Shown here piece after piece: positions 1 to 39,903 of a DNA stretch of 64,000 bases. Within the stretch, counting starts at the first letter, position 1, and the number at the start of each line of letters is the position of its first letter. Position numbers and translations under genes: made by a program. The notes beneath the pieces were generated by a model, which did not search any database, was not told the DNA's origin, and saw only the letters and a program-made list of their open reading frames with translations. Source of the DNA: Callorhinchus milii (lineage: Eukaryota); the NCBI RefSeq assembly GCF_018977255.1, contig NW_024704742.1, positions 31,126,001 through 31,190,000 on the forward strand, read 5' to 3'.

Positions 1-688
1 CAGGGGTACAAATGTCTCAAAGCTTGCCCACTGATGCTAAGTACAGCAGGTAAGGAATATGAAGCAGACTACCGTTTGCTAAGCACAGGGAGCAGGCAAG
101 GCTATGGAGGTATTTGAAAGCGGGACCAAGAATCTTGAACTTGATCCACAGAGGAGTCAGCATTACGGTGGAGAATACTTACAGAACGACAATTTGTGCA
201 TGTAAACCTAAATTTAGAAATCAAAGATAGCATAAAATAATGTAAGATGACATCTTAATGAAGTAGGAATATAAATTCCCAACTAAATTATAACACACTG
301 CTTTCCTTGAAGGAAAAACAAATCTACAGTTCTGTTATTCTTAATTACTTATTTTAACTACAGAATATAACCCTTAATATATACTCCATTAAAGCTCACT
401 AAATCCCTTAAAATTGCAGTAAGAAACTTTGGCAACAAAAAGTATCCCAGAAGATATTGTTGTAATTTTCTACTTTCAAATTGTACCAAAATGTGAATAT
501 TACATCCTATTAGTCAGTCACTTGCCATGTGACTGACTAAATAGGTTGTAATATTCATAGATCATATAGTTGTGACTAAGTATTTACGATTTCTTTTTAA
601 TATGCAGTACCATAATAATTCATCAATGCTATTTAAGTGCAGCAAGCAAAAACAAATTAAGTTGTAGGTTTCACTCTGCTTTCCTTAC

Positions 689-867
689 CTTTTCTTGGAC
701 AATAGCCACATACGGTAAAACAAACAGTACATCTCTCTTCCTGCACAGTAGCTCCTGCATGATCAAAATCTCAGCAACCAGTGTCTTCCCACCGCTCGTC
801 GGCAGTGAATAAATTAGATTCTTTCTTTGCTGCAAGGATTCCAAAGTCAAACAAGTGTGTTGCCATT
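689..867 (-). CDS. HELQ: HELQ (helicase POLQ-like) coding exon 3; gene continues beyond the left edge
   Basis: Encodes (E)[59 protein letters not shown], with SF2 Walker A PTSGGKT. Acceptor ccacag, donor GTAAGG; phase 1 joins exon 2. Confidence 0.95.
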
Positions 868-1218
868 CTGTGGAGTTTATCAAAAGAGCATTAGATTTTT
901 GATTAGAAAATGTTAAATATTTCAGGAAATAAAAAATGTTTCATGTAAAAATAACAATGAATAGCAGTTTTTTTTGGACTAATTATAACGATTTGCAGGT
1001 CTCGTTGCAACCTGCATAATTTGTCAATATTCTCCTTTTTCTCCTCTCCTTAAAGCACTTCTACTCCAGCAGGCAGGCTGGCCCACCTGATTATCCTCTT
1101 TATGTGTCAAGATGGAGATTCGAGCATCAGCAGTCGAAGCCATCACATGAAGACCATCCGTTCTCAACCTGACACATGCTGATTTTTCAGCTCCCCAAAT
1201 AGCTTTAAAAATCTTTTA

Positions 1219-3730: not shown

Positions 3731-4273
3731 CTACCTAGATTGGCCTCCAAACCTTTTAGAAGCTGTCCTCCTCATGGGACACACCTGAATTCAAGAACAA
3801 CAACTTGCATTTATATAGTGCCCTTCACGTGGGACAGTTTCGGAGCGCTTAACAGTGGCAGAGCACAACCCTGAGTCGCGGAGAGGGAGGAGGTGACCGC
3901 AAGCACAGTCGAAGAGGACGATCTTCTTTTATGATCTAAAAGAAGGGAAGAAAGAGGAAAGGCGAAGGGATTGGGGAAAGAGTTCCAAAGCTTCGGGGGG
4001 TTGTGGTTGAAAGGCGGAGGAGGGTATGAGGGACAATCAGCAGGCCAGAGCCTGCCAAGCAGAAGCAGCAGATAGTGTTGTAGGGAGATAGGTCAGAAAG
4101 GTAGAGAGATGCCAGGGCATGAAGGGATTTGTAGACGAGAGGATCTTGAAATCAATATCCTGAGGAACTATTTTCCTTCAAGTGTGCTGTACATCAATAA
4201 GATTGCAGAATAGTTTCAATATACAATATTAAATTAATACAATATTAAATATTCTTTCCCCCATTCTATTTAC

Positions 4274-5078
4274 CATAAAGATCTTTGATGCCTTTGAACT
4301 GGAAAATCAAATCCCGAATTTTGCTTGGAAGTCCATAGAAAGGGCCCATGTCAACATCGGAAGTAGCTTCAATCGTTCTCATAGCAACATTTATCTCTTC
4401 AGTAACTGCAGCATCTTTCAGTTGTTTACTTTTTGACATCTGTGGTACTGGAGCAGAAGCATTTCCAGCCATTGCGCTTTTCATCTGATCTGTCAGACTT
4501 CTCCGGGCACTGGTCCCAGAATTTGTAGTTCCTGATTGCTTAGTTATTTTGCCAGTATTTGCCATTTTAGCCTCCGAAACTGAAGGCATTTCAAAATTAT
4601 TATCATGACAATAGTTCAAACAGCTATTGTCTTCTGCTACTAAATCTACATTTTCATGCTCGATCAGGAATGAGTTCACCCCATCCTTTACTTCAAGTTG
4701 TGAGCTAGGTAATTCATCAAGTACATTTGTATTTTCAACTTGTGGCACATGCCAACCTTCTGCCATGGTTATGTTTCTCTTCTTTACAACACAGTCTTTA
4801 TCTGCTTTGACATCAGTAAGGTTTGTACATTTAGAAGGATACTGCTCATCTGATTCATTTTTGTCATTTTGTGAACAATTAAGTAACTCAGGATTGTTAA
4901 ATGTTGGCTGATATTCGTGGTTATGGAGTTTCTTGTCATCTTCCACAGGGCTAGAAGTCAGAACTTTGGTACAGTTAGAAATTCCTCTCTCTGCTTCATC
5001 AAGCTGCACCAAAAAGCCACTGTCATTTGCAAAGCTGTCGTAGTCTCCAAAGAGGTCCTCATCACTGTTGCAATTCAT
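4274..5078 (-). CDS. HELQ: HELQ coding exon 2 (805 nt)
   Basis: ORF MNCNSDEDLFGDYDSF...GPFYGLPSKIRDLIFQFKGIKDLY resembles the HELQ N-terminal region. Acceptor tttttcag, donor GTAAAT. Confidence 0.92.
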
Positions 5079-5254
5079 CTGAAAAAAGTACAGTATAATA
5101 TATATTTTTTAAAATGTTGCTCATCATTCTTGAAGGAGTGACTAATTTGGGTGTGGAGGGTTACTCTCACTTTATATTCCTCATGTGTTAACCTGCAATA
5201 CAAAATTATATTTGTAAAGCGCTTTTCACAGGTTTTCTGTCCATTCAATGATCA

Positions 5255-6020: not shown

Positions 6021-6289
6021 GTTGATCAGTGTGATGTATACAATCTGAAGGTGGTCAGGTAGTGTGCATATTTACAGGGCTGTGTTACGAGTATTTTTTA
6101 ATCAGCATTGTGTATATTTATTTTATTATTATATATACTTACAAGGCAGTGTTGTGTATATTTATTAACCGTTATTTTGTATATTTACAGGGCTATGTTG
6201 GGCATATTAAATTATCAGGTTGTTTTTACATTTATTGTCCTGTTTTGTGTGCACTTATCGGTTGGTGACCGTTCATTGATCATTGTTGT

Positions 6290-7995
6290 GACGATTCACT
6301 GATCAGTATTCTGTTCACTAACTGCTCAATGTTGTGTCCATTCATTGATCAGTGTGGCATACATTCAATGATCAGTGTTGTGTGCAGCCATTGATCAGCG
6401 TGGTGACCATTCAAAGATTAGTGTTATGTGCAGTCATTGATCAATGTGGTGACCAGTCATTGATCAATGTGGTGACCAGTCATTGATCAGTGTGGTGGCC
6501 AGTCATTGATCAGTGTGGTGACCAGTCACTGATCAGCGTTGTGCATATTGACTGATCAGTGTGGTGGACAGTCACTGATCAGTGTGGTGACCAGTCATTG
6601 ATCAGTGTTGTGTATATTGACTGATCAGTGTGGTGACCAGTCATTGATCAGTGTTGTGTATATTGACTGATCAGTGTGGTGACCAGTTATTGATCAGTGT
6701 TGTGTATATTGACTGATCAGTGTGGTGGCCAGTCATTGATCAGTGTTGTGTATATTGACTGATCAGTGTGGTGACCAGTTATTGATCAGTGTTGTGTATA
6801 TTGACTGATCGGTGTGGTGACCAGTCATTGATCAGTGTGGTGACCAGTCATTGATCAGCGTTGTGCATATTGACTGATCAGTGTGGTGGACAGTCACTGA
6901 TCAGTGTGGTGACCAGTCATTAATCAGTGTTGTGTATATTGACTGATTGGTGTGGTGACCAGTCATTGGTCAGTGTTGTGTATATTGACTGATCAGTGTG
7001 GTGGTCAGTCACTGATCAGTGTGGTGACCAGTCATTGATCAGTGTGGTGTATATTGACTGATCAGTGTGGTGGCCAGACATTGATCAGTGTGGTGACCAG
7101 TCATTGATCAGTGTTGTGTATATTGACTGATCAGTGTGGTGGTCAGTCACTGATCAGTGTGGTGACCAGCCATTGATCAGTGTTGTGTATATTGACTGAT
7201 CAGTGTTGTGTATTTTGACTGATCAGTGTGGTGACCAGTCATTGATCAGTGTTGTGTATATTGACTGATCAGTGTGGTGACCAGTCATTGATCAGTGTTG
7301 TGTATATTGACTGATCAGTGTGGTGACCAGTCATTGATCAGTATTGTGTATATTGAGTGATCAGTGTGGTGACCAGTCATTGATCAGTGTTGTGTATATT
7401 GACTGATCAGTGTGGTGACCAGTTATTGATCAGTGTTGTGTATATTGACTGATCGGTGTGGTGACCAGTCATTGATCAGTGTTGTGTATATTGACTGATC
7501 GGTGTGGTGACCAGTCATTGATCAGTGTTGGGTATTTTGACTGATCAGTCTGGTGACCAGTCATTGATCGGTGTTGTGTATATTGACTGATCAGTGTGGT
7601 GACCAGTCACTGATCAGTGTGGTGACCAGTCATTGATCAGTGTTGTGTATATTGACTGATCAGTGTGGTGACCAGTCATTGATCAGTGTTGTGTATATTG
7701 ACTGATCAGTGTGGTGGCCAGTCATTGATCAGTGTGGTGACAAGTCATTGATCGGTGTGGTGACCAGTCATTGATCGGTGTGGTGACCAGTCATTGATCG
7801 GTGTGGTGACAAGTCACTGATCGGTGTGGTGACCAGTCACTGATCGGTGTGGTGACCAGTCACTGATCGGTGTGATGACCAGTCACTGATCGGTGTGGTG
7901 ACCAGTCACTGATCGGTGTGGTGCATATTGACTGATCGGTGTGGTGACCAGTCACTGATCGGTGTGGTGCATATTGACTGATCGGTGTGGTGTAA
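6290..7995. repeat. 23-bp minisatellite with two alternating variants in HELQ intron 1
   Basis: Units TGATCAGTGTGGTGACCAGTCAT and TGATCAGTGTTGTGTATATTGAC in tandem over ~1.7 kb. Confidence 0.95.
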
Positions 7996-8086
7996 TTTAT
8001 ACGCCTGTCTGCAACTGGTGTAGCGCCAGTCACCCCCGAGTGTGTGTGTGTGTCAGTTACTGCCCCACAACTCTGCCCTTGTGTAC

Positions 8087-8281
8087 CTCCTCCACCGCCG
8101 CCGCCGCCGTGGTCGGGGGCTGCCAGGCCGGGGGGCTCGGCTGTTCCCGGGGCGGCGGCCTCTGCCGGTGGCTGCGTCTCTTGACGGGCGCGGGCCCAGT
8201 GCTGGAGGCGGCTCCTCTCTCACGGCCCCTCTTGCGGCCTTTGACCCGCCGGTTGATCTCGGAGGCCGGGCTCCCGTCCAT
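8087..8281 (-). CDS. HELQ: HELQ coding exon 1 (65 codons)
   Basis: MDGSPASEINRRVKGRKRGR... resembles the basic vertebrate HELQ N-terminus and lies in a CpG island. GAG|GTACAC donor is phase 0, matching exon 2, but the donor is weak so the boundary is less certain. Confidence 0.75.
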
Positions 8282-8853
8282 GGAATGGCCTCAACGGTGC
8301 GCACGGCTCAGCGCCGCCGCCGCCGCCGCTCCCTCCCCCGGCGGCCTCATCCGGTGCTGTATTCCCACCGGCGGGGAGTGCAAAGAGGCTGCGGCCGGTG
8401 CCGGGCTCTAGGCCCGGGCTGAAGGCCCGCGGGCCGCACTCGCACGCGGCGTCGCCATGACGCCGGCCCCGCCCCTGGTGACGCTAATTTATGGTAATGA
8501 GGTCACTCGGGGACGGACTGACGGACCGCCGCCGGTCACGTGATTGTGATGCGGGATGAGCTGCGATGACGCCCCGTTCCCGCTGTGTCGGTTCATTTAT
8601 GATCGACATTTATTATCGACCGTTATTATGGTGTGGAATCGGCTTTACTGTCCGGGGTTTAACATCGATGGGCTTCACCGTTCAGGCCCCGCCCCCTCCC
8701 CTAGTACGGCCCCGCCCCCTGACCCGGCCCCGCCCCCTGGCCCAGCCCCGCCTTGGCCCCTGGCCCCGCCCCTGCCCCCTCCCGCGGGCTTGACAAGGGC
8801 GGAAGTGACGCAAGAGTGCTGACTTCCGGCCTAGTCTTAACTGCTTCGGGGTA
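8282..8853. promoter_or_regulatory. CpG-island bidirectional promoter and 5' leaders of HELQ and MRPS18C
   Basis: Divergent ATGs at 8281(-) and 8854(+); CpG rich. Several GGCCCCGCCCC GC boxes at ~8685-8775, E-box GTCACGTGA near 8536, ETS motifs GCGGAAGTG (8799) and ACTTCCGG (8822). Confidence 0.85.
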
Positions 8854-8899
8854 ATGTGGCGAGCGACGGCAGCGCTGAGAGCAGCTCAACACCAGCCAG
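8854..8899 (+). CDS. MRPS18C: MRPS18C exon 1 (MWRATAALRAAQHQP, presequence-like)
   Basis: ATG just downstream of the ETS motifs; Arg/Ala-rich peptide; CAG|GTAACC phase-1 donor fits exon 2. Confidence 0.8.
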
Positions 8900-10407
8900 G
8901 TAACCCCCCCCCCCCCCAGCCAGGTAACCCCCCCCCACACCAGCCAGGTAACCCCCCCCCCCCCCACACCAGCCAGGTAACCCCCCCCCCAACACCAGCC
9001 AGGTAACCCCCCCCCCACACCAGCCAGGTAACGCCCCCCCCCACACCAGCCAGGTAACCCCCCCAACACCAGCCAGGTAACCCCCCCCCCCAACACCAGC
9101 CAGGTAACCCCCCCCCCCCACACCAGCCAGGTAACCCCCCCCCCCCCCCACACACCAGCCAGGTAACCCCCCCCCCAACACCAGCCAGGTAACCCCCCCA
9201 ACACCAGCCAGGTAACCCCCCCCCCCCACACCAGCCAGGTAACCCCCCCCCCCCCCACACCAGCCAGGTAACCCCCCCCCCCCACCACCAGCCCCCCCCC
9301 CCCACACCAGCCAGGTAACCCCCCCCCACACCAGCCAGGTAACCCCCCCCAACACCAGCCAGGTAACCCCCCCCCAACACCAGCCAGGTAACCCCCCCCC
9401 CCAACACCAGCCAGGTAACCCCCCCCCCACACCCACCAGGTAACCCCCCCCCCCCACACCAGCCAGGTAACCCCCCCCCCCCACACCAGCCAGGTAACCC
9501 CCCCCCCCCCAACACCAGCCAGGTAACCCCCCCCACACCAGCCAGGTAACCCCCCCCCCCACACCAGCCAGGTAACCCCCCCCCCCCACCCCCCCCCAAC
9601 ACCAGCCAGGTAACCCCCCCCCCCCCCCCCCCCCACACCAGCCAGGTAACCCCCCCCCCCCCCCACACCAGCCAGGTACCCCCCCCCCCCCCCACACCAG
9701 CCAGGTAACCCCCCCCCACCCCCAACACCAGCCAGGTAACCCCCCCCCCCCAACACCAGCCAGGTACCCCCCCCAACACCAGCCAGGTAACCCCCCCCCA
9801 ACACCAGCCAGGTAACCCCCCCCCAACACCAGCCAGGTAACCCCCCCCCCCCAACACCAGCCAGGTAACCCCCCCCAACACCAGCCAGGTAACCCCCCCC
9901 ACACCAGCCAGGTAACCCCCCCCCCAACACCAGCCAGGTAACCCCCCCCCACCCAACACCAGCCAGGTAACCCCCCCCAACACCAGCCAGGTAACCCCCC
10001 CCCAACACCAGCCAGGTAACCCCCCCCCCCAACACCAGCCAGGTAACCCCCCCCCCCCCAACAACAGCCAGGTAAACCCCCCCCCAACAACAGCCAGGTA
10101 ACCCCCCCCCAACACCAGTCAGGTAACCCCCCCCCCCCAACACCAGCCAGGTGACCCCCCCCCCAACACCAGCCAGGTAACCCCCCCCACCCCCCAACAC
10201 CAGCCAGGTAACCCCCCCCAACACCAGCCAGGTAACCCCCCCCACCCCCCAACACCAGCCAGGTAACCCCCACCCCCCAACACCAGCCAGGTAACCCCCC
10301 CCCAACACCAGTCAGGTAACCCCCCCCCCCCTAACACCGGCCAGGTAACCCCCCCCCCCAACACCAGCCAGGTAACCCCCCCCCCCCCCAACACCGGCCA
10401 GGTAACC
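8888..10407 (+). repeat. C-rich minisatellite, unit (A)ACACCAGCCAGGTAAC + poly-C, ~56 copies
   Basis: Direct tandem repetition, copies counted by eye; poly-C spacer length varies. Confidence 0.95.
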
Positions 10408-10409
10408 TA

Positions 10410-11800
10410 ATAAACTCAGTGCGAAAGGGCTTACCCTGAATTGTAAGACTGTGACCCCTGGTTATAGTTTCTCCAACCAGGGGAAAAAGTCTCCCACTAT
10501 CTATTCTGTTGTGCCCCTTAATAATCTTATAGGTTTCTATAAGATCACCTCTCATTCTTCTATATTCAAGAGAATATAGGCCTAAATTGCTCAACCTATC
10601 CTTGTAACTCATCCTTGGTACCAACCTAGTGAATCTATGCTGTACTCTCGCCAAAGGCAAGTATGTCCTTTCTTAAATAAGGAGACCAAAACTGCACACA
10701 ATATTCCAGGTATGGTCTCACCAGGGCCCTATACAGTTGCAGCAAGACTTCCCTATTCTTATATTTTAACCCTTTTGTAACAAATGCCAACATGCCGTTA
10801 GCCTTCCTAGTTGCTTGCTGTACCTGCAAACTAACTTTTTGTGACTGGTGTACAAGGACACCCAAATCCCTCTGAACGCTAACACTATCTAGTTTCTCCC
10901 CTTCTAACAAATAATCTGCTGTACTGTTTTTGCCACTGAGGTGGATGACCTCACACTTCCCTACATTATACTTCATCTGCCACCTATTGGCCCACTCACC
11001 TAACCTATCTATACATTTTTTTTAATGTCATCCTCGGTGTTTATTCTCTCTCCTAGTTTAGTGTCATCTGTGAATTTGGATATATTAAGTTTGATGCCCT
11101 CATCTAGATCGTTGATGTAGATTGTAAATAGTTGAGGCCCAAGCACTGACCCTTGTGGCACTCCACTTGTCACATTCCGCCAATCTGAGAAGGACCCGTT
11201 TATCCCTACTCTTTGTTTTCTTCCCGTTAGCCATTCTTCAATCCATGATAATATATTCCCCTTAATTCCATGGGTCCTAATCTTGTGGATCAACCTTTTA
11301 TGTGGCACCTTATCGAATGCCTTTTGGAAATCTAAATACACTAACTACATCCACTGATTCCCTCCTATCTAATCTACTTGATATGTCCTCAAAAAAATCT
11401 AAAAAATTTGTTAAGCATGACTTCCCTTTTGTAAAGCCATGTTCACTCTGTCTCATCATATTGTGATACTCTAAGTATCCCACGATGACATCCTTAATTA
11501 AGTATTCTAGAATTTTTCCTACCACCGATGTCAGACTAACTGGTCTATAGTTCTCCATCTTTTCTCTCCCACCCTTCTTAAATAGTGGTGTGACGTTTGC
11601 GATCTTCCAATCAATGGGAACTGTTCCAGAATCCAAAGAATTTTGGAAGATCAGACACAAGGCCTCCACTATCTCATGAGCTACCTCTTTTAAAACCCTA
11701 GGATGCAGACCATCAGGTCCAGGGAACTTGTCACTTTTTAATGCCAACAATTTCCCTAGCCCTAATTCTTTGCTAATGTAAATTTCCCTAAGTTGCTCCC
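10410..11800 (-). mobile_element. CR1-type LINE ORF2 (reverse transcriptase) fragment, frameshifted and truncated at both ends
   Basis: ORFs contain [53 protein letters not shown] and RPYLEYCVQFWSP, all typical of CR1. Confidence 0.92.
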
Positions 11801-12184
11801 TATCAGGTAACACTCGTGCACACACACCAGCCAGGTAACACTTGCACACACACCAGCCAGGTAACACGCACAAACAGACAGGTGATACTCACACATGCAG
11901 ATAGCACTAGACAGGTAACGAACAGAGAGACTGCATCAGGCAGGCCTAACCATTCAACATGATGCACAAAGAGATAGCACCAGACAGGTAACGGGAGAGA
12001 GGCAGAGTGTGAGCAATGCTGAGAGCAGGACAGCACCCGCAGCAAAGCAACAGGCGAGAGTGTGGGAGAATAGTACTGAGACCAGGACAAAACCTGCAGC
12101 CAGGTAACCGGGTAGAGAGAGTAAATGAAATAAAAAGTGAGTGAGAGAAAGTCTGGGTGAGGGATTAAGTGATGAGAGAAAATA

Positions 12185-12505
12185 CAGTGCTAGGGGTGTG
12201 CTGCACTGTTGGAGGTGCTGTCCTTCAGGTGAGGTCCCGTCTGCCTGTGCAAGGTAAGGTTAGTGATCCGATGGCATTATTTTAAAGGGGAAGGGAGTTT
12301 CTCTCGGTGTCATGGCCAACAATCCCTCAAATAAAATTGTTCATTTAGTTCATGACTGTTTGTGGGACATTGCTGTGTGCAGATTGACTGCTCTGTTAGC
12401 CTATACAATATACAGTCAATACATTTAACATTAACAGTAATTACTGTAATCTGCTTGGAGGTGTTTTGATGTTGTAGGTGCTATGTCAAATGCAAGGGTT
12501 ATTGT
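12185..12505 (+). mobile_element. Older Deu-domain SINE (SacSINE1-like), partial
   Basis: GCTGCACTGTTGGAGGTGCTGTCCTTC...GTTTGTGGGACATTGCTGTG; related copies near 36640-37005, 37130-37320, 47990-48275, 50280-50645 and 52340-52750. Confidence 0.65.
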
Positions 12506-13176: not shown

Positions 13177-13238
13177 GCATATGGCAACGGAGCCTAAACA
13201 TTCAACATAATGCACCCACGAGTGGCATATCTGATATG
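13177..13238 (+). CDS. MRPS18C: MRPS18C exon 2
   Basis: tttttcag acceptor, GTAAGA donor; encodes (G)IWQRSLNIQHNAPTSGISDM; phases 1/0 fit the neighbours. Confidence 0.8.
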
Positions 13239-14297: not shown

Positions 14298-14381
14298 CCA
14301 ACCAAGTTAGAAAATCCCTATAAAGAATCTCCCAAGAGGTGCACTTTGTGCGGTATAGAAGTGAACTACAAGAATGTGCAG
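14298..14381 (+). CDS. MRPS18C: MRPS18C exon 3
   Basis: PTKLENPYKESPKRCTLCGIEVNYKNVQ, with the CxxC and YKNV features of bS18m; canonical splice sites. Confidence 0.95.
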
Positions 14382-15166: not shown

Positions 15167-15224
15167 CTCTTGTCCCAGTTTGTATCTCCATATACAGGCC
15201 ACATCTTTGGGAGACATATAACAG
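15167..15224 (+). CDS. MRPS18C: MRPS18C exon 4
   Basis: LLSQFVSPYTGHIFGRHIT(G), the S18 family core; GTAAGA donor. Confidence 0.95.
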
Positions 15225-15623
15225 GTAAGACAAAATACATGTTTGAAATGTGTTTTATTCCTTAAAAGTTGTAGTAAAAGAAATTCTTAGGTATAATTAC
15301 TTATACTTTAGGGTGGCAAAAGTGTGTTTTTTGAGGCAGGGACTGTGAAAGATACTGTACTGTGTTTCAAGATAAAAATAATTTCTGTTACTGTATTACA
15401 GAATGATTTATCTCCCTCTATATTTGTCTGTGTTTTTCCTGCAGTTATTTTTGTATCAAGAAAATAAAGATGTTTTGTGTGTTAAGGCGCCTGTATTGGA
15501 TTGATAGTAAATTTGCCATCAATTGAAACAGTCTTTAAGACTTGATTCAATTAATTCAGCAGTGGGAAAACTGAAGTTTGTGTAATTTACTTTAAATATT
15601 TACCTTATTTTTCTCCTGTTTAG

Positions 15624-15683
15624 GCCTGTGTGGAAATAAGCAAAAACAAGTTGCTAAGGCCATCAAAAGAGCCCAGCATATGG
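15624..15683 (+). CDS. MRPS18C: MRPS18C exon 5
   Basis: (G)LCGNKQKQVAKAIKRAQHM(G), the S18 signature; canonical splice sites. Confidence 0.95.
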
Positions 15684-15869
15684 GTATGTAGTGATTTTAA
15701 AGGTTTCATTCTACAGCTGATATTATCATGTAACTCATCGTGGTCCATTCTTGTGTACCTTTGAATAAATGCAAGAGACGTTGCCCTTAGCTATGTTGAA
15801 GCTCTTCCACTAGGCTTTCCACCTCGGACACTGACAGCATTAATTGACGCTAATACAGACTCCACCTAA

Positions 15870-17309: not shown

Positions 17310-17386
17310 GATTTATGCCAGTGACCCAGAAGGACCCAACTTTCATAAAGGATCCAAACATTTGTGATATTAAACTTCTAGAATAA
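17310..17386 (+). CDS. MRPS18C: MRPS18C exon 6 (terminal coding exon)
   Basis: (G)FMPVTQKDPTFIKDPNICDIKLLE*. Total CDS is 387 nt, or 128 aa plus stop. Confidence 0.95.
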
Positions 17387-35546: not shown

Positions 35547-35574
35547 GGGGGGGGGGGGGGGGGGGGGGGGGGGG
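35547..35574. repeat. Poly-G homopolymer (~28 nt)
   Basis: Directly visible. Confidence 0.9.
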
Positions 35575-39878: not shown

Positions 39879-39903
39879 NNNNNNNNNNNNNNNNNNNNNN
39901 NNN
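39879..39903. other. Assembly gap (25 N)
   Basis: Run of N characters. Confidence 1.

Follow-up and report, generated by a model that had tools for sequence, protein, structure and literature searches.

There is a known kind of minisatellite in which the first monomer lies across an exon-intron boundary, and the accessible part of Borensztajn et al. (2006; PMC1557585) describes it in F7, IFI6, CBS, LMNB2 and PDGF. According to that part, in the 37-bp tandem repeat of variable copy number (VNTR) of human F7 intron 7, which has five to nine units, the authentic 5' splice site (donor) is followed by identical pseudo-donors, which experiments showed to be functional but to lose to the most upstream site, the only one used. 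In human IFI6 (6-16) intron 2 there are 25 pseudo-sites, the nearest two serving constitutively besides the authentic site, and the units add residues in frame; two pseudo-sites are used in CBS (intron 13) and only the authentic site in LMNB2 and PDGF (intron 4). A related array is that of human ABCA7 intron 18, where a C-rich 25-bp unit of large copy number flanks exon 18 and includes its donor; the accessible part of De Roeck et al. (2018; PMC5954066) reports a minor isoform that retains one unit, as well as a correlation of array length with expression, exon 19 skipping and disease risk. Here, we have analyzed a stretch of 64,000 nucleotides (nt) from Callorhinchus milii (assembly GCF_018977255.1, contig NW_024704742.1, positions 31,126,001-31,190,000 of the forward strand; hereafter the window, whose own coordinates are used throughout), in which intron 1 of MRPS18C opens with ~56 tandem copies of its own donor. 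This array belongs to the boundary-spanning kind, whose architecture and first-site rule have already been published, and its first copy is the donor that was found in use.

The gene and the array comprise the following features (a slash within a motif marks the cut):

8854..8899, plus strand: coding part of MRPS18C exon 1, with the ATG at 8854; MWRATAALRAAQHQP, followed by base 1 of a Gly codon (RNA contigs; match to the protein P0001)
8897..8905, plus strand: working 5' splice site CAG/GTAACC, cut between 8899 and 8900 with a one-G ambiguity (RNA contigs)
8888..10407, plus strand: minisatellite of ~56-57 units, core ACACCAGCCAG/GTAAC followed by a poly-C run (Tandem Repeats Finder; script counts)
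13177..13238, plus strand: MRPS18C exon 2, acceptor ...TTTTTCAG/GCA (RNA contigs; gene model)
14298-14381, plus strand: MRPS18C exon 3 (gene model; PDB matches)
15167-15224, plus strand: MRPS18C exon 4 (gene model)
15624-15683, plus strand: MRPS18C exon 5 (gene model; Pfam Ribosomal_S18)
17310-17386, including the stop codon, plus strand: MRPS18C exon 6 (gene model; PDB matches)

On the basis of sequence comparison, the gene is identified as MRPS18C, as the earlier note on this DNA had proposed. The Pfam family Ribosomal_S18 (PF01084) was found at 15623-15688 on the plus strand with 28.6 bits, above its curated cut-off, and the best PDB matches were mitochondrial S18c/bS18m proteins (7/8 for the exon 3 peptide and 7/7 for the exon 6 peptide). 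The six-exon model that uses donor 1, all introns of which are GT-AG (intron 1 being 4277 nt long), translates exactly to P0001, a public 128-amino-acid C. milii protein, which its source names 28S ribosomal protein S18c, mitochondrial, and which was the only protein retrieved when the open frame around exon 3 was used as query. The end of exon 1 (8899, phase 1) falls within the first repeat unit, with which the last 12-13 nt of the exon (CAACACCAGCCAG) share homology.

Tandem Repeats Finder reported the array at 8889-10407, with a period of 25/27, ~57 copies and 83% matches, and a script counted 56 CAGGT sites in it between 8899 and 10401. It should be noted that the copy number and the exact poly-C lengths are those of the assembly alone. 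The great majority of the sites (51 out of 56) are the identical 9-mer CAGGTAACC, which means that the donor is reiterated unchanged; the remaining five are CAGGTACCC (two sites), CAGGTAACG, CAGGTAAAC and CAGGTGACC (one each). Thus, within the array the working donor 1 is followed by 55 CAGGT pseudo-donors, spaced 23-47 nt apart (mostly 23-31 nt). When the array was cut at CCAG/GT, each unit was laid out as GTAAC, then a C run, then (A)ACACCAGCCAG; unit length was 23-38 nt, and there were three longer units, each where one site has mutated. The poly-C runs are mostly 7-15 long, with a single run of 21, and the array as a whole is 60% C and has only three CpG. Variants occur among the units (CAGTCAGG, CCGGCCAGG, GTGACC, GTACCC and split C runs), and the array changes in an ordered way along its length, a mix of CACACC/AACACC units giving way to AACACC units almost exclusively. 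Searching the 991.5-Mb assembly for the unit pattern with poly-C, at most one mismatch being allowed, gave 53 matches, all of them in this array, and a reversed control gave none; the repeat is confined to the MRPS18C intron 1 locus. These results uphold the description in the earlier note of a tandem array of ~56 donor copies that runs to 10407 and repeats the last codons of exon 1 together with their donor.

Evidence on donor use was obtained from four sequencing runs, which were mapped as contigs on 7970-8960, that is, the promoter, exon 1 and the first three units. Two of them (X5 and X7), which come from different studies, were treated as RNA since their contigs are spliced; the run records do not state RNA. 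The X5 contig covers 8834-8900 and the X7 contig 8848-8900, and both continue with 30 letters that, compared by eye, are identical to 13178-13207. Each run therefore contains the junction 8899/13177, with one G common to both sides, in one unbranched contig. The earlier note had placed the real exon junction at 8899/8900, in the first unit, and had called for a survey of RNA junctions ending at acceptor 13177; these spliced contigs agree with the former, and donor 8899 was the only one seen over the mapped stretch. No contig using a later donor was seen in X5 or X7, where depth was zero in bins 8922-8955 (contigs show presence, not absence). No C. milii isoform longer by 8 or 16 amino acids was found among the best 120 of 504 homologues, and the cluster of P0001 has one member. 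Thus, on two RNA-like runs, donor 1 is the form seen in RNA.

Compared with the systems described above, the MRPS18C array consists of head-to-tail units within the range of the kind (~10-100 bp), with the authentic donor in the first unit and unchanged copies after it. It resembles the F7 VNTR in that an authentic donor is followed by identical pseudo-donors and the most upstream one is used. The two differ in that the F7 array lies in an internal intron, counts five to nine 37-bp units, has a weaker donor (UGG/gugggu) and has been tested by mutation (accessible part of PMC1557585), whereas that of MRPS18C lies in a first intron, counts ~56 units (23-31 bp, poly-C spacers) and was studied here from sequence and contigs. 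With IFI6 it shares the many reiterated donors and units that add, or here would add, residues in frame; in contrast to the constitutive use of the two nearest IFI6 pseudo-sites (same part of PMC1557585), none was seen in use for MRPS18C in X5 or X7, and only two of its later copies are in phase. The array of ABCA7 is similar in its ~25-bp C-rich unit, in flanking an exon and including the donor, and in its large copy number, and differs by its one-unit retention isoform and by the effects that correlate with its length (accessible part of PMC5954066). CBS, LMNB2 and PDGF have the same boundary-spanning first monomer, with other unit sizes (up to 81-100 bp; accessible part of PMC1557585). The copy number of the MRPS18C array is among the largest that we found described for this architecture, and the array lies in a first intron, next to the cap. 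In a basal jawed vertebrate, it offers a clean natural case in which many identical 5' splice sites face one acceptor, and could serve as a test case for whether the first site wins at cap-proximal exons outside mammals. It opens no new question, considering that architecture and rule are published and that a function of the array has no support here.

We consider it likely that the array is an intronic minisatellite that arose from the MRPS18C exon 1/intron 1 junction, in which only the first copy works and which is most likely neutral. It would have originated by tandem duplication of this junction, that is, of a piece made up of ~12 bases from the exon end, the GTAAC donor and a spacer rich in C. 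The first, cap-proximal copy would be the working 5' splice site, and the other ~55 would be removed with the 4.3-kb intron 1. By analogy with F7, the first site most likely wins since it is transcribed and recognised first, following the 5'-to-3' order of 'oriented scanning' shown for that gene. The nearby cap probably helps in this choice. As for the array, we take it to be most likely neutral and unstable, with slippage or unequal exchange driving its turnover.

Several points weigh against this explanation. Since rare variants are lost from contigs, later donors could be used at a low level without showing in X5 and X7; products of donor 4 onward contain a premature stop, and degradation may remove them before they are detected; and junctions from donors beyond 8947 could not show, the mapping having covered the first three units only. 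The run from a relative (X12) gave only patchy promoter matches and unspecific C-rich ones, and the C. milii sequence is that of one individual. In addition, neutrality is assumed, and the length of the similar 25-bp C-rich array of ABCA7 correlates with expression and exon skipping (accessible part of PMC5954066).

The alternative that survives best, rather unlikely and also compatible with a neutral minisatellite, is that later donors are used at a low level, giving splicing noise or minor isoforms. Donors 2 (8923) and 3 (8947) are identical 9-mers located 24 and 48 nt downstream of donor 1 and in phase as assembled, and they are the only two later copies in phase; they would add GNPPPPQP and GNPPPHQP to the presequence, that is, 8 or 16 Gly/Asn/Pro-rich residues, while donors 4 and beyond would yield substrates of nonsense-mediated decay (NMD). 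The frame that reads through past donor 1 stops at the TAA at 9004-9006. Both the phase of donors 2 and 3 and this stop had been claimed in the earlier note, and recomputation by script found them correct; it should be noted that the phase of donors 2 and 3 is set by the poly-C lengths in the assembly (14 and 9), which have no other source, and this dependence counts against the alternative. There is precedent in the use of two pseudo-sites besides the authentic one in IFI6 and CBS (accessible part of PMC1557585) and in the retention of one 25-bp unit in ABCA7 (accessible part of PMC5954066). In another cartilaginous fish, Narcine bancroftii, two annotated isoforms of the orthologue (P0012 and P0014) are distinguished by three residues (GRG) located precisely at the exon 1/2 junction, where alternative donor choice may take place. 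Against all this stand the contigs of X5 and X7, both of which pass unbranched through 8899/13177 with no trace of a later donor, and the lack of a longer C. milii isoform among the homologues compared.

It is improbable that the array is a selected regulatory device, in which competing or decoy donors or a local landing pad for the U1 small nuclear ribonucleoprotein (snRNP) tune MRPS18C, premature polyadenylation or promoter bias. The motif CAG/GUAA pairs with U1 small nuclear RNA, and the donor sites of the array (n=56) offer seven contiguous complementary bases each, the first of them lying ~50-65 nt from where RNA contig coverage begins. An AATAAA hexamer follows at 10409-10414, two bases past the last array unit, and the correlation of ABCA7 array length with expression and splicing could also be taken in favor of such a device (accessible part of PMC5954066). 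Other hexamers occur in MRPS18C intron 1 at 12129, 12330, 12926 and 12935. U1 snRNP is very abundant, which makes a global U1 sink implausible. None of the results here gives direct support to a regulatory device, and a minisatellite of 46 bp x 37 without donor motifs, in the first intron of the neighboring gene, suggests that splice sites need not be invoked to explain arrays beside this CpG island. In F7, deleting or adding units left donor choice unchanged (accessible part of PMC1557585). Thus, the part of the earlier note that invoked competing or decoy donors, tuning of isoforms or NMD and a U1 sink found no support: the two RNA-like runs contained donor 1 only, with zero depth over 8922-8955, no longer isoform was present among the best 120 of 504 homologues, and the accessible part of PMC1557585 describes downstream copies that are either silent or, apart from the first two, unused. 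These published precedents make the functional inference less likely.

There is also little reason to favor the view that the array is not inert, and we regard it as doubtful in each of its forms. One is that it would permit recursive splicing hops of exon 1 that leave no trace, each unit supplying a branch-point-like UAAC, a C tract, AG and a GUAAC donor formed anew; the corresponding layout (TAAC, then at least six more C, then at most 12 nt, then CAGGT) occurs at 43 places in the array, which is a prediction from the letters, and poly-C is a poor U2AF tract. Another is that ~56 U1 sites within 1.6 kb of the start would form a promoter-proximal platform whose length might set how much MRPS18C, and perhaps also the divergent helicase gene described below, is expressed, and changes of poly-C length might switch donors 2 and 3 in or out of frame. 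The minus strand of the array is strongly rich in G runs, with a G4Hunter-type score (own script) of -1.8 versus -0.26 and 0.12 in the flanking intron; by this score the array is predicted to have the high G-run density of G-quadruplex-prone minisatellites, the G runs being on the MRPS18C template strand.

That the array, or much of its length and of its poly-C lengths, stems from homopolymer errors or mis-assembly is very improbable: independent read support does end at 8901 with the sole DNA-like contig (X1), short C-rich X1 and X12 contigs at 8904-8940 were rejected as support since their GGT letters are deleted (8919, 8922-8925) and they are not assignable to the array, and homopolymer lengths such as 7-21 are error-prone, but the units carry distinct internal variants and the ordered CACACC/AACACC change, which look real rather than like a collapsed or stuttered read, and a break of short-read contigs at the first poly-C is expected of a real array.

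Further information on the history of the minisatellite was provided by the sequence behind it, which contains two features:

10413..11805, minus strand: internal fragment of a LINE (long interspersed nuclear element)-type reverse-transcriptase retroelement (Pfam RVT_1, 65.6 bits), truncated at both ends
11804..12110, plus strand: degenerate older units with seven CAGGT(A/G)A sites, single-copy in the genome to ~12180

Outside the array, the window has 22 CAGGT(A/G)A sites, and seven of them are within 11804-12110 (11806, 11834, 11860, 11881, 11914, 11987 and 12103), so that the ~6 degenerate copies reported there by the earlier note are real and slightly more numerous. In two of these seven units the 16-mer core of the array, ACACCAGCCAGGTAAC, is conserved without change. 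The stretch 11806-12180 is single-copy in the genome, and a short interspersed nuclear element (SINE) begins near 12180; this SINE-like repeat (12180-12400) has thousands of candidate copies in the genome. The retroelement fragment (1.39 kb) belongs to an abundant family, the scored copies of which are 88-93% identical. Copies of the family extend past it by ~243 bp at the 3' end and by over 1.5 kb at the 5' end, so that it is an internal piece and not a standard insertion. Array-type sequence is present on both sides of it, with five extra letters at one junction, and it may be DNA taken up when a break in the array was repaired, which is a guess. The older units with the same 16-mer core beyond the fragment suggest that the array predates it and that the proximal part has been homogenised since; the simplest reading would be an older array that was split by the fragment and whose promoter-side part later took on its poly-C form by homogenisation.

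In an alignment of 19 orthologues, the Pro/Gly codon split at the exon 1/2 junction was common to Heterodontus, Hypanus, Polyodon and Amia; on this evidence, which is at the protein level only, the junction is probably older than the array. Two other origins were examined and rejected. Borrowing of the exon 1 end from a pre-existing repeat is unlikely considering the shared Pro/Gly junction (again at the protein level). The array is also not a dispersed satellite or a transposon tail: its unit is locus-specific, 11806-12180 is single-copy, and the adjoining retroelement piece lacks a 3' end of its own.

On the other side of exon 1, the following features were found:

8468..8834, no strand assigned: shared CpG-island promoter interval, ~360 bp between the covered exons
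8087..8471 (at least), minus strand: non-coding first exon of a divergent POLQ-like/Hel308-type helicase gene (HELQ-like), from an X5 spliced contig

The minus-strand X5 contig that covers 8087-8471 continues with letters located at 5049-5078, and its donor (8087/8086) is GT. Exon 2 of the helicase gene begins exactly at the ATG at 5078, behind CAG (...TTTTTTCAG/ATG), and therefore the whole 5' untranslated region is in exon 1. A DEAD-helicase motif is present in the frame 674-940 (minus strand), with the helicase domain of POLQ and Hel308 as best PDB relatives. The predicted gene fits HELQ, which we take to lie head to head with MRPS18C in human; the name is not established for the divergent gene here. 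The earlier note had the array next to a bidirectional promoter, and the first exon in this spliced contig does lie in the same CpG island. The promoter interval contains five GC boxes (8468, 8688, 8711, 8729 and 8765), presumably Sp1-like, and two inverted CGGAAGT/ACTTCCG sites (8800 and 8822), presumably ETS/GABP-like; these motifs lie just upstream of the first RNA-covered bases (8834 and 8848). The second minisatellite mentioned above (6252-7969, and 6108-6208; 46 bp x 37, 85% matches) occupies intron 1 of the helicase gene, ~117 bp from the donor of its exon 1, and contains no donor-like motif. From its position, both first introns that flank the CpG island begin with a long tandem array.

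Pfam searches with the open reading frames 4269-5108, 10638-11021 and 10334-10672 (minus strand) gave no match. In one copy of the retroelement family (L016:3272-3693), a ~40-bp tandem repeat begins ~120 bp after the shared homology ends. Elsewhere in the window, there are a run of 28 G at 35547-35574 and a 25-N assembly gap at 39879-39903.

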